Below are positions 22,811 to 58,552 of a DNA stretch of 64,000 nt, in pieces; position 1 is the stretch's first letter, and every line of letters starts with the position of its first letter. The notes beneath the pieces were generated by a model that did not search any database, had not been told where the DNA came from, and saw only the letters and a program-made list of their open reading frames with translations. A program made the position numbers and the translations under genes. The stretch comes from Felis catus (taxonomy: Eukaryota), in assembly GCF_018350175.1 (NCBI RefSeq), contig NC_058368.1, forward strand, positions 41,852,001 through 41,916,000, in the 5' to 3' direction.

Positions 22811-22857
22811 ATATAATTTTCAAACTTTTGTATTCAAGGGGATGATGACTGAACATG

Positions 22858-23054
22858 TTTTATTTACTTTTGAGAGAGACAGACAGAGGGTGAGGAGGGA
22901 GGGGCAGAGAGAGAGGGAGACACAAAATCTGAAGCAGGCTCCAGGCTCTGAGCCGTCAGCACAGAGCCCAATGCGGGGCTTGAACTCACTAACTGTGAGA
23001 TCATGACCTGAACCGAAGTTGGACACTTAACCAACTGAGCCACCCAAGTGCCCC
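22858..23054 (-). mobile_element. Can-SINE (SINEC_Fc2-like)
   Basis: Antisense SINE ending gagccacccaagtgcccc. Short tail, no convincing TSD. Confidence 0.96.
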
Positions 23055-30534: not shown

Positions 30535-30755
30535 TTTAAACAAATTTTTTTAATGTTTATTTTTGAGAGAGAGAGACAGAATACAAATGGGGGAGGGGCA
30601 GAGAGAAAGAGGGAGACACAGAATCTGAAGCAGGCTCCAGGTTCCAGACTCCTAGCTGTCAGCACAGAGCCCCACATGGGGGGATCTCACGAACCGCAAG
30701 GTCATTACCTGAGTTGAAGTCAGACGCTTAACAGAATGAGCCAACCAGGCACCCC
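30535..30755 (-). mobile_element. Can-SINE (SINEC_Fc2-like)
   Basis: Antisense body ending gagccaaccaggcacccc. Partial TSD tcttgtt. Confidence 0.96.
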
Positions 30756-31539
30756 AGTCTTGTTATTATATTTGACAATCCTAATTAATTATAACTATAT
30801 TAAAATATTATCAGATTAAGCAAAATGTTATCATAAATACTTTTTAAATAAAATAAGTATATATTTTTAATATTGGAGATGAGTTATATTTCAAAAATTT
30901 AAAAGATTTTAATAACAACATCTCTGCTGCAAAGTGGATTTAATGTATACCTCTTAGATGTTAGTGCTATGAAACCCAGTAAATGGGATGCTTGCTTCTT
31001 TCTCATATCACCTAAGAAAAGTATTTTTTTAGGGGTTGACATTATATTTTTAATGTAAAACATGATTTTATTCATTAACTTCAATGTCCTTCCTAACTAA
31101 ATCTGTCAGCAAATCCAAAAAGATTAGTTTGACTCAGTAATGATGGACTTATTTTATTATCATAAATTAGGAAACTACAAGTGTCTTTTGGAGACTAATA
31201 CCTGAAAATATTGTCAGGAAAGAAGGTACAACATTAATTTGATGATACCGGTCGATATTACTTCAACCCTCCATTTGTCAGATAAATATCTCTGTGTAAA
31301 ACACCACTTCTTGGATGCAAAGATCCTTAGACCATATCCATTTAAATAAGCAGGTAGAATATGGGTAACTCAGTTTTGTTAGCTTTCTTAAGAGTTATTA
31401 TTCAATGATATGGATTATAGAGCAAATAATTCAGTAGTCATTTTACTGAAATAATTAACTCTATTTCATTTATGTCAGTCATTAGGAAGAAAGCAAAGTA
31501 TGAATTTTGACATGAACAGAGAGGGTCTTCAGTGTGTGT

Positions 31540-31542
<3 letters not shown>

Positions 31543-31584
<42 letters not shown>
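31543..31584. repeat. (TG)n microsatellite
   Basis: 21 TG units. Confidence 0.98.
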
Positions 31585-31587
<3 letters not shown>

Positions 31588-31639
31588 TAAAACAATATCA
31601 TAAGGCCATACATTTTATTAGGAAAGATTTGGTTAGAAG

Positions 31640-31850
31640 CAGATACTCTAGTCAGACACACCTAAAAGCTCTGGATGTCACCTATTTATAAGCTATGTGA
31701 CTTAGACACCTTACTCTCTGAACCTGTTTTCCCATCTATAAAACTAAGTAATAACAATACCTGATTAAGAGGATTAGTGTGCGGATTAAATGGGTTCATA
31801 ACACTCAAGAACTTTACAGTGTGCATTTCATATCTGCTAATGTTGTGACT
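31640..31850 (+). mobile_element. MIR
   Basis: agctatgtgacttag...ctctctgaacctgttttcccatctataaaa...ggattaaatg. Confidence 0.75.
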
Positions 31851-31989
31851 AGTTATGATTATGATCTGATTTATGGGAATTTGTGCTTACCTAAATTAAA
31901 TGAGATTTGATGCTTACATAAATTATATGAGATTGGAGATGGATTATAGGCCAGTTACAGATATGAAAGAAGAGCTAGCCAGCAAATAT

Positions 31990-32445
31990 CCCAGGCTTGG
32001 ATGATCTCTACTGTAACTGGCTATATGACGTTTGGTAAACTGCTTTATTTTTCTGTGCTTTGGTCCCTCATTTGAAAAGCAGGGATAACAATAGTACCTA
32101 TCTGGGGCTGTTTGTGAAGATTAAAAGAATTACCATGTAGGGGCGCCTGGGTGGCTCAGTCAGTCGGGCATCCAACTTCAGCTCAGGTCATGATCTCACA
32201 GTCTGTGAGTTCAAGCCCCGCGTCGGGCTCTGTGCTGACAGCTCGGAGCCTGGAGCCTGCTTTGGATTCTGTGTCTCCCTCTCTCTCTGCCCCTCCCCTG
32301 CTCATGCTCTCTCTCTGTCTCAAAATAAATAAAAACATTAAAAAAAATGTACTCCCTGCAGTAGCATTAAAGATCTACTGTTATTTAAAAAAAAAAAGAA
32401 TTACCATGTAAAACATTAATTATAGCACCTGGCATATAAGTTTTC
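31990..32445 (+). mobile_element. MIR split by the SINE at 32140
   Basis: ctggctatatgacgtttggtaaa...gggataacaatagtacctat...gtgaagattaaa, then after the SINE: aaacattaattatagcacctggcatata. Confidence 0.8.
32140..32393 (+). mobile_element. Can-SINE (SINEC_Fc2-like) with extra 3' segment
   Basis: Full body. Perfect 17-bp TSD aaaagaattaccatgta at 32123-32139 and 32394-32410. Confidence 0.98.
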
Positions 32446-37814: not shown

Positions 37815-38895
37815 TGATATGTGTATTTTTAAACAGAACATTGAACATATTACCACATTCTTAATAGTAATATATCATGTTAGCACTAAATATACACATT
37901 TGCAAAGATTTTGACAATTATTCATTTGTCTTGCCAGGATGTGGTGCCAGGAATTTCCTTTGTGAATCAAGTTGGACTGTGAATGTTTAGAGAATAATTT
38001 TAGGCTCTCAATATATACTCTAAGTATATGAACAAGCTAACTGTATAAACTACAATGTACAAAGATGAGATGTGTTTGTGACATTTAATAATCCCTCAAA
38101 GCATTGTCTAATTTGGCACACATTTAGTTTTGTATGACCTAGAAAAAAAAAAGGATAATTTCCATTTTATGTCAAAAGGCTTAGTTTATAGTTATCAAGT
38201 TACAAAAAATACGTATGTGTCTCTCACTAAATTTCCTCCTACGGATGTTTTCATTTTTAAAGAAATTGTGCCTGTAAAGTCAATAGAGCCTGCATATTTA
38301 TAGTATAGATATGATAACATGTTTTTTCCATCATTTGCCAAACTTACCTTGTCAATATTCATAACATAAACTGTTTAGGGATGTATATAAAGACAGTGAA
38401 ATGGCTTGTTGTATGAATAATCGAAAATATTCTCTCTCTATGAGAAATGAGCTATTTCAAAATCTGTACCAAGGATAGTTTTATTGGGTGAATTCTAAGA
38501 ACACACCTGAAAAAGTCTCATTTCTCCTCCAAGACCAACTCTAATTTTGCCTCTCTGGAGTCAACCTGATAGCTAGGCCAGCTGGATGCAATGAGGACCA
38601 AAGATCTATGCAGGGAAGTTGATTAGAGAAGCTTTTAGGCCAGGATCAGGAGAGCCACTGGTGACTACCAAAAAGTGCCACTTCTTGAGAAGATAGTGAC
38701 CGGCAGAAATCGGTGTGGCAGAAGTTTCAGCGCCGAGCTGAGTGGGAGCTGAGGACTCCAATGTAGGAGGCTTGCGACATAGAGCCACAGCAGCCCTGCA
38801 GCAGAACCACAGCATCCAACAGGTTTCATGACCGAGGACGGACATTTGTTTTGTTCTGTTTTGCTGTTGTTTTTATTTTATCTTATTTTATTTTT

Positions 38896-39107
38896 TATTT
38901 TTTTTAATGTTTATTCATTTTTTGAAAGAGAGAGACAGAGCGTGAGTGGGGAAGGGGCAGAGAGAGAGGGAGACACAGAATCTGAAGCAGGCTCCAGGCT
39001 CTGCACTGACAGCACAGAGCCCGACACGGGGCTCAAACTCATGGACAGTGAGTTCATGACTTGAGCTGAAGTCAGACACTTAACCGACTGAGCCACCCAG
39101 GCGCCCC
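38896..39107 (-). mobile_element. Can-SINE (SINEC_Fc2-like) inserted in the A-rich tail of the next SINE
   Basis: Ends cccaggcgcccc. Flanked on both sides by ttattttattttt. Confidence 0.96.
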
Positions 39108-39315
39108 AATTTTATTTTATTTTTAAGTTTATTTATTTATTTTGAGAGAGAGAGAGTACACATGTGAGCACGGGGAAAGGGCAGAGAGAGAATCCCAAGC
39201 AGGCTCTGCACTGTCAGCGCAGGGCCCCATGCGGGGCTCGAACTCATGAGTGAGGTCATGACCTGAGCTGAAACCAAGAGTTGTATGTTTAACCAACTAA
39301 GCCACCCAGGTGCCC
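39108..39315 (-). mobile_element. Older Can-SINE (SINEC_Fc3-like)
   Basis: gagagaatcccaagcaggctctgcactgtcag...gaaaccaagag...gccacccaggtgccc. Confidence 0.95.
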
Positions 39316-39346
39316 GTGGCACTTGTTTTAAAACCACTGAGGATGA

Positions 39347-39569
39347 GGGGCGCCTGGGTGGCGCAGTCGGTTAAGCGTCCGACTTCAGCCAGGTCACGAT
39401 CTCGCGCTCCGTGAGTTCGAGCCCCGCGTCAGGCTCTGGGCTGATGGCTCGGAGCCTGGAGCCTGTTTCCGATTCTGTGTCTCCCTCTCTCTCTGCCCCT
39501 CCCCTGTTCATGCTCTGTCTCTCTCTGTCCCCAAAATAAATAAACATTGGAAAAAAAAAATCTTTAAAA
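39347..39569 (+). mobile_element. Young felid Can-SINE (SINEC_Fc-like)
   Basis: CpG-rich. Tail has AATAAA...TCTTT plus an A-run. Perfect 17-bp TSD aaaaccactgaggatga at 39330-39346 and 39570-39586. Confidence 0.98.
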
Positions 39570-39959
39570 AAAACCACTGAGGATGATTTATACTGCAGCC
39601 AAACTGCTGACGCTGAGGAAGTCCAACCACCGCTTCTGATCTAGGAGCCACCATTGAGCAGTAAAACTCATGCTAATGTAGTAATGTCATATCTGGAGGT
39701 GGATCAGTCCAGAGAGACACAGACAGACGCAGTGAGCCAGAATTACACAGGGGGAGAGGTGGCCTACAGAGATTCAAATATAACATCAAGGAGAATTCTG
39801 GACCTAATAAATCTGATTTCCCAATTAACGGTTGAGTGTGTGAACTGATAAAGTGATGGTCACCAGGGCGGACCAAATGAGTGCCTGGAGAACACATGCA
39901 AGAGATGTCATGAAGCAGAGATTAAAAAATAAATACTCTTAACAAGTGGTAAATTATAA

Positions 39960-51340: not shown

Positions 51341-51407
<67 letters not shown>

Positions 51408-51628
51408 GAAGGAAGGAAGGAAGGAAGGAAGGAAGGAAGGAAGGAAGGAAGGAAGGAAGGAAGGAAGGAAGGAAGGAAGGAAGGAAGGAAGGAAGGAAGA
51501 AAAGAAAAGAAAGAAAGGAAGAAAGGAAGGAAGAAAGGAAGGAAGAAAGAGGGGGAGGAAGGAAGGAAGGAAGGAAGGAAGGAAGGAAGGAAGGAAGGAA
51601 GGAAGGAAGGAAGGAAGGAAGGAAGAAA

Positions 51629-51693
<65 letters not shown>

Positions 51694-54482: not shown

Positions 54483-54500
54483 TTTTCTTTTTCTTTCTTT

Positions 54501-54568
<68 letters not shown>

Positions 54569-54632
54569 TCCTTCCTTCCTTCCTTCCTTCCTTCCTTCCT
54601 TCCTTCCTTCCTTCCTTCCTTCCTTCCTTCCT

Positions 54633-54692
<60 letters not shown>

Positions 54693-54696
54693 TTCT
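54483..54696. repeat. Compound (TTTC)n(TTCC)n(TTTC)n STR, 214 bp of pure pyrimidine
   Basis: Seen directly. Confidence 0.98.
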
Positions 54697-57415: not shown

Positions 57416-58451
57416 CAAGAGAATTAAAAGCAAAAAGGAACTATTGGGACCTCATGAAGATAAAAAGCTTCTGCACAGCAAAGGAAACAATCAACAAAAC
57501 TAAAAGGCAACCAATGGAATGGGAAAAGATATTTGCAAATGACATATCATGACAAAGGGCTAGTATCCAAAATCTATAAAGAACTCACCAAACTCCACAC
57601 CCAAAAAACAAATAATCCAGTGAAGAAATGGGCAGAAGACATGAATAGACACTTCTCTAAAGAAGACATCCAGATGGCCAACAGGCACATGAAAAGATGC
57701 TCAACGTCACTCCTCATCAGGGAAATACAAATTCCCACCTCATGCCAGTCAGATGGCTAAAATGAACAAATCAGGAGATTATAGATGCTGGCGAGGATAT
57801 GGAGAAACGGGAACCCTCTTGCACTGTTGGTGAGAATGCAACCTGGTACATCCACTCTGGAAAACAGTGTGGAGGTTCCTCAAAAAATTAAAAATAGATC
57901 TACCTTATGACCCAGCAATAGCACTGCTAGGAAGTTACCCAAGGGATATAGGAGCGCTAATGAATAGGGGCACTTGTACCCCAATGTTTATAGCAGCACA
58001 TTCAACAACAGCCAAATTATGGAAAGAGCCTAAATGTCCATCAACTGATGAATGGATAAAGAAATTGTGGTTTATATATATGATAGAATACTACTTGGCA
58101 ATGAGAAAGAATGAAATATGGCCTTTTGCAGCAACGTGGATAGAACTGAAGAGTGTTATGCTAAGTGAAATAAGTCATACAGAGAAAGACAGATACCATA
58201 TGTTTTCACTCTTATGCGGATCCTGAGAAACTTAACAGAAGACCATGGGGGAGGGGAAGAGAAAAAAAAAAGAAAGGGAGGGAGGCAAACCATAAGAGAC
58301 TCTTAAAAACTGAAAATAAACTGAGGGTTGATGGGGGTGGGAGGGAGGGGGTGGTTGGGTGATGGGTATTGAGGAGGGCACCTCTTGGGGATGAGCACTG
58401 GGTGTTGTATGGAAACCAATTTGACAATAAATTTCATATTAAAAAGAAAAA
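57416..58451 (+). mobile_element. Young 5'-truncated felid L1 (L1_Fc-like): ORF2 C-terminus + 3'UTR
   Basis: ORF track gives the L1 ORF2 C-terminus ([70 protein letters not shown]). G-rich 3'UTR, AATAAA. Perfect 15-bp TSD gaaaaagacctgaca at 57401-57415 and 58452-58466. Confidence 0.98.
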
Positions 58452-58552
58452 GAAAAAGACCTGACATTTTAGGGACTTCTCACACATTATCTCTTTCATG
58501 ATCAGAACAAGCACATAAAATAGTCACAAACAGTAAAACTTACATACAAATT

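Follow-up and report, generated by a model that had tools for sequence, protein, structure and literature searches.

A cat Can-SINE with a 39-nt tag in its tail: a candidate Pol III 3′ transduction of parental flanking DNA

How does a short stretch of complex DNA come to lie between two A-runs in the tail of a SINE? The question is raised by a locus near the middle of the 64,000-nucleotide stretch of Felis catus DNA that we analysed (hereafter the window), where a full-length feliform Can-SINE carries extra non-element DNA before its final A-run, within one target site duplication (TSD). A preliminary description of this DNA had reported the order SINE body, AATAAA, A-run, 39 bp, second A-run and a 17-bp TSD. 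We confirmed this order, and the 39-mer proved to be exactly as quoted. The same description proposed that the 39 nt were flanking DNA carried off from a parent copy by read-through transcription. In our view the locus is best explained by Pol III transcription that ran past the end of a parent without a terminator, followed by polyadenylation and retroposition, with a probability of roughly 0.65.

The insert is enclosed by 17-bp direct repeats at positions 32123–32139 and 32394–32410, both on the plus strand as are all features of the element given below. The two repeats are identical, form a perfect TSD pair and cannot be extended at either end. TT precedes the 5′ copy, giving TT/AAAA, an L1 endonuclease-type site and the consensus given for this enzyme in PMC9599045. 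According to the alignment with in-window copies, the insert begins at nucleotide 1 of the family (32140). The Can-SINE body, delimited by alignment with 11 in-window copies, extends over 32140–32321 and consists of a tRNA-type head with A and B boxes followed by a CT-rich motif; a terminator scan of this body found no TVTTT or T4. The family tail at 32322–32347 contains overlapping AATAAA hexamers at 32324 and 32328, ATTAAA at 32337 and an A8 run at 32340–32347, with no terminator remnant in that interval. The 39-nt tag, a candidate captured flank of a parent copy, occupies 32348–32386. It contains ATTAAA at 32366–32371, a variant polyadenylation signal (PAS) located 15 nt before the second A-run, and ends in TATTT at 32382–32386, a moderate Pol III terminator that abuts this run. 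The internal ATTAAA is a feature absent from the preliminary description. The second A-run (A11, 32387–32397) has seven A residues outside the TSD and four within it.

The element is a Can-SINE: the head, the CT motif, the AATAAA repeats, the A-tail and the TSD are all present, and the mean column identity to 11 in-window copies over the head and CT motif was 83%. Can-SINEs are of tRNA-Lys ancestry (PMC9599045), and feliform subfamily II is distinguished by a T in the B box and a GGCTCGG motif (PMC4084570). Matching positions from the text of the latter paper, we found the B-box T and six of the seven motif bases. The young subtype IIB (SINEC_Fc1-like) is marked by a T to G change in the A box and a one-base T indel (PMC4084570). 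In the copy studied here the A-box position is T, and a T that is absent from three young in-window copies is retained; the copy therefore lacks the IIB diagnostics and is IIA-like. Against a leave-one-out consensus of eight older copies it differs at 2 of 88 non-CpG columns and 12 of 43 CpG-prone columns, and some of these differences may have been inherited from its parent. Of the nine older copies it is one of the least diverged, yet it is not evidently recent: its A-runs are short, and six CpGs remain where the three young copies have 11–14. The suggestion that the tag marks an active source locus is thus unsupported, because the copy that bears it is not young.

The host is a MIR-like repeat, presumably a MIR. 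To detect its 5′ part (32023–32139, plus strand, left boundary approximate), we masked the host and derived a profile from the MIR-like copies of the window; the match had E 3.8e-08 and ended 11 nt before the junction. Its 3′ continuation (32411–32440, plus strand, right boundary approximate) was in register in five of six comparators, at marginal significance. A second MIR-like copy lies in the same orientation at 31609–31912 (+), about 0.1–0.4 kb upstream of the host. When the reconstructed empty site was aligned with the six in-window MIR-like copies, the junction was crossed without a tag-sized gap in five; the significance of these alignments was marginal (17 of 1000 shuffles for the best, 69 of 1000 pooled), and in three of the six comparators the tag-containing version outscored the empty site. 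We traced the higher score to the comparator at 31609 (+), with whose 3′ part the tag aligns in register (16 of 1000 shuffles and 12 of 1000 random 39-mers). Pooled over the comparators, the tag did no better than 419 of 1000 shuffles and 429 of 1000 random 39-mers, and the tag alone on the 31609 (+) copy gave 296 of 1000. These alignments offer a weak hint that the tag may be MIR-derived. Used as a single query sequence in nhmmer, the empty site gave no hit better than E 1.7. The preliminary description held that the host is contiguous without the insert and that the tag must hence have arrived with the SINE. Contiguity is plausible from the alignments; co-insertion does not follow from it, because a later insertion into the A-tail would also fall within the TSD. 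It is instead the TSD pair, which encloses the tag, that shows it to be foreign to the host.

What kind of sequence is the tag? Within the window the 39-mer occurred once at up to three mismatches, with no further occurrence expected, and the next best match was 11 nt. No in-window source locus, with a SINE directly upstream of this sequence, was found. Apparent Alu transductions have been resolved to mutated tails (bioRxiv 2024.04.29.591526), and the tag might likewise be a decayed A-tail, or else an assembly error. However, its G+C content is 14 of 39 (36%), it has only 10 A residues and 29 distinct 3-mers among 37, TRF detected no tandem array at the tag, and the TSD is perfect. The complex composition and the lack of a TRF array rule out decayed poly(A) or a microsatellite, and the broader explanation by tail decay or misassembly is barely credible. 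A small-RNA origin was rejected because an Rfam search at E≤1 left the tag unmatched; the sole match between 30000 and 35000 scored 15.6 bits at 31473–31609. An L1 3′ end was likewise rejected as the origin of the tag, which does not match the in-window L1 copy near 58150–58460. That copy (57834–58460, plus strand) is a 5′-truncated L1-like element with a 130-aa open frame followed by a 3′ UTR and an A-rich tail; the frame resembles the end of ORF2. Open reading frames of at least 110 aa in the window appeared to be repeats or this L1-like fragment, and we recognised no coding context there. The window also contains two compound tetranucleotide arrays of the AAGG/AAAG type, at 51341–51689 (87 units) and 54490–54693 (51 units).

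The tag could also have been acquired in the insertion reaction itself. Reverse transcriptase would have begun with a different polyadenylated RNA before jumping to the A-tail of the SINE RNA, or filler would have been captured during repair. A single TSD and the ATTAAA would fit such an event, and most of the tag lies between short repeats (TGT at 32348 and 32379, TACT at 32350 and 32376); the tag also forms a small hairpin. However, repeats of 3 and 4 bp are expected by chance. The hairpin (−7.4 kcal/mol) was insignificant (z −1.67; 14 of 200 shuffles), so that we also rejected a hairpin or inverted-repeat element. A local template was rejected as well: within 100 bp, 143 of 266 other test windows and 203 of 500 shuffles scored equally well, and within 300 bp the score of the tag was matched by 90 of 99 other test windows and 397 of 500 shuffles. 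We regard a chimera or filler as improbable.

TATTT at the last five bases of the tag is the only TVTTT or T4 in the 258-nt element. Among 127,922 random 39-mers from the window, 2.8% end in TVTTT or T4, and such a motif precedes 6 of the 79 window runs of at least seven A residues (7.6%, including the one studied here). Because T-rich ends are commoner before A-runs than the random rate, the weight of the terminator argument is limited to about 13- to 35-fold. From a random position in the window, the median distance to the first terminator is 47 nt, a scale comparable to that of the tag. Under the T+ model, a tag should end at the first terminator in the flank of the parent. In B2 constructs, TATTT terminates Pol III transcription with an efficiency of 42% and is hence leaky; it tends to survive in daughter copies (PMC8466645). 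Can transcripts are polyadenylated via AATAAA and the CT motif (PMC9599045). Mouse B2 transcripts that read through to flank terminators 28–97 bp away are also polyadenylated, less efficiently with distance, and lengthening the spacing between PAS and terminator by 25 bp lowered polyadenylation 2.5- to 3-fold in HeLa cells (PMC12101331). In the cat copy, 53 nt separate the end of the last AATAAA from the junction of the tag and the A-run, a spacing within the B2 range. ATTAAA acts as a PAS on Pol III B2 RNA at one third of the AATAAA level (PMC8466645), so a flank containing both a PAS and a terminator would be favoured for capture.

The ATTAAA within the tag can also be read in favour of Pol II. 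An mRNA PAS typically lies 15–25 nt from the poly(A) (PMC12101331), and the 15 nt found here suit an mRNA 3′ end equally well, a point against the read-through reading. ATTAAA occurs in 2.5% of random 39-mers, and ATTAAA or AATAAA in 5.6%. One such possibility is that the SINE was part of a Pol II transcript that was cleaved and polyadenylated at this canonically spaced ATTAAA; dog SINEs have been reported as PAS donors to 3′ UTRs (PMC11699766). However, a Pol II transcript would have to be truncated by coincidence exactly at SINE nucleotide 1, whereas this 5′ end fits a Pol III start. In addition, two stronger AATAAA signals upstream would have been passed over, and the insert happens to end at a Pol III terminator. 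We consider this explanation very unlikely.

A second possibility is that the tag is a later, tiny retrocopy of a polyadenylated RNA, for instance of an mRNA 3′ end, inserted into the A-tail of a resident SINE at TT/AAAA with an all-A 8-bp TSD. Besides the mRNA-like spacing of ATTAAA, with a chance of 2.5–5.6%, A8 is present on each side of the tag, and another Can-SINE in the window (5′ end 39107, minus strand) is nested in the A-rich tail of a further copy (39316, minus strand). Yet A8 is the only direct repeat that flanks the tag, and if it were a TSD just three residues of A11 would be left for the poly(A) of the retrocopy itself. The terminal TATTT would be an unexplained coincidence, the tag has no similarity to the in-window L1 3′ end, and insertion of a 39-nt piece into a target of 8–12 nt should be rare per copy. 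On balance we think a later retrocopy unlikely, though worth keeping in mind.

The read-through reading can be stated as a series of steps. The tail of the parent Can-SINE would have lost its terminator, so that transcription from the internal promoter would have continued through A8, the parent's own TSD and the flank until it came to a stop at the first motif resembling a terminator, either TATTT or TAT with further T residues behind it. The RNA would then have been polyadenylated via the AATAAA and CT motif of the SINE, possibly with help from the ATTAAA of the captured flank, and inserted by L1 ORF2p at the TT/AAAA site in the MIR, generating the 17-bp TSD. A small part of the probability given above belongs to a variant in which the flank of the parent already contained the second A-run, and priming took place there. 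Since TATTT tends to be copied intact, the tagged copy could also be a granddaughter of the capture event. Termination at TATTT and polyadenylation of read-through transcripts have been published for related SINEs and by analogy would apply here; the parent locus, the single insertion event and the de novo polyadenylation of the second A-run are what we infer. The read-through mechanism put forward in the preliminary description thus fits the sequence in its TATTT end and its 53-nt spacing, while the single co-insertion that it assumed is not established by MIR contiguity. Judged from the sequence, the locus is a probable candidate for Pol III 3′ transduction of the flanking DNA of a parent copy.

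Comparison with the other Can-SINEs in the window put the tail in context. BLAST identified 16 copies, including the one studied here, and a script called a TSD for 13. The called TSDs span 9–21 bp, and some of the calls, at 9 bp, are weak. Three copies had no TSD within 130 nt, one of which (6583) has a degenerate TSD. The 72-nt tail of the tagged copy is the longest among the 13 TSD-bearing copies (11–48 nt in the other 12), and it contains 15 G+C, compared with 1–4 in the others apart from one doubtful call with 11. Several neighbours have the arrangement A-run, short T-rich terminator remnant, A-run and TSD; in the tagged copy the slot of the remnant holds 39 nt. A candidate flank-carrying tail was found in 1 of the 13 TSD-bearing copies. 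The bodies of 11 of the 15 other copies contain TVTTT or T4, which, like the leakiness of TATTT, counts against the read-through reading.

Several further features of these neighbours were observed. TGTTT lies within the body about 115–120 nt from the 5′ end in six copies (39347, 60964, 36056, 6042, 6583 and 63642). Three of these six are young, so this weak Pol III terminator is evidently no bar to amplification. The copy at 22840–23054 (minus strand) lacks an A-run after its AATAAA region, and no TSD match follows in the next 3 kb; a 3′ deletion is the probable cause. Another, at 30545–30755 (minus strand), has a 7-bp internal insertion after the B box that appears to be a local duplication. 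Three Can-SINEs form a cluster at 38870–39590, in which an IIA-like copy (5′ end 39107, minus strand) lies within the A-rich tail of an older copy whose 5′ end is at about 39316 (minus strand), and a young IIB-like copy (39347, plus strand) with a perfect 17-bp TSD stands head to head with this pair at a distance of about 30 bp.

The closest precedent comes from the same SINE family. Kosushkin et al. 2022 (PMC9599045) proposed that TSDs supply dog Can copies with terminators, which daughter copies then inherit, and the cat copy shares with that scheme the two-module tail and, on the read-through reading, a newly gained heritable terminator downstream of the A-tail (Figure 8 of that paper, events 2a and 3). 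In dogs, however, the captured terminator lies inside the TSD and the modules are of the form T2-3A6-14, whereas the capture considered here is in a feliform copy and involves a complex sequence whose 39 nt exceed the length of the TSDs called in the window (9–21 bp). A second parallel is provided by mouse B2 'category C' transcripts (PMC12101331), in which transcription of a T+ SINE lacking a terminator runs on into the flank, ends at a terminator no more than about 60 bp away and yields a polyadenylated RNA. Such an RNA is the intermediate that the read-through model predicts for our locus. Category C is known as RNA in mouse, whereas a retroposed DNA copy with its flank is not described in the accessible text of that paper.

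The anatomy itself, with an element, a unique tag, poly(A) and one TSD, is that of L1 and SVA 3′ transductions, in which the tag traces the parent (PMC13103737, PMC12458276, PMC13756887, PMC9311842). Those arise by Pol II read-through of a weak PAS, whereas the cat tag would have arisen via Pol III termination. The canine transduction analyses among these papers (PMC13103737, PMC12458276, PMC13756887) were, in their accessible text, directed at LINE-1 only, and PMC6934888 gives counts of primate mobile-element transductions with no split by family in the text available. Proposed Alu 3′ transductions likewise place additional DNA within the TSD of a Pol III SINE (bioRxiv 2024.04.29.591526). Alu, in contrast, is a T− SINE that lacks a PAS and is not polyadenylated, and for this reason its flank is normally lost. 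A screen of 118,489 AluY copies, in which tags had to exceed 70 nt, confirmed no transduction (bioRxiv 2024.04.29.591526); a 39-nt tag would have gone uncounted, because tags of up to 70 nt were ignored. The same preprint cites a single Alu-monomer case of Kojima and AluSx-WaluSat. A Can-SINE 3′ transduction beyond the TSD was not described in the literature that we searched, although supplements and subscription papers may hold cases. The word 'transduction' does not occur in the main text of PMC9599045 or in the searched text of PMC8466645, PMC11240701, PMC12984919 and PMC12358842.

Each step of the proposed transduction has thus been anticipated in print, and as a single unverified locus the tagged Can-SINE is a modest find, of a sort that published mechanisms lead one to expect; we saw no sign at the locus of a host function for the insertion. 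The wider proposition is that, since polyadenylation can follow read-through in T+ SINEs such as Can, these elements routinely take 20–60 nt of flank with them, and that copies ending in TATTT or TCTTT pass the tag on. We hold this to be a serious possibility, though somewhat short of an even chance. Its interest lies in the difficulty of identifying SINE source copies; for Alu, genome-wide screening confirmed no transduction tags. Should short tags prove common among T+ SINEs, source loci would become identifiable and the T+ model would be testable at the DNA level. Carnivore genomes, unlike Alu-bearing ones, would then hold many built-in barcodes that tie SINE copies to individual parent loci, and parent–offspring trees of SINE source elements would be readable directly from existing assemblies.
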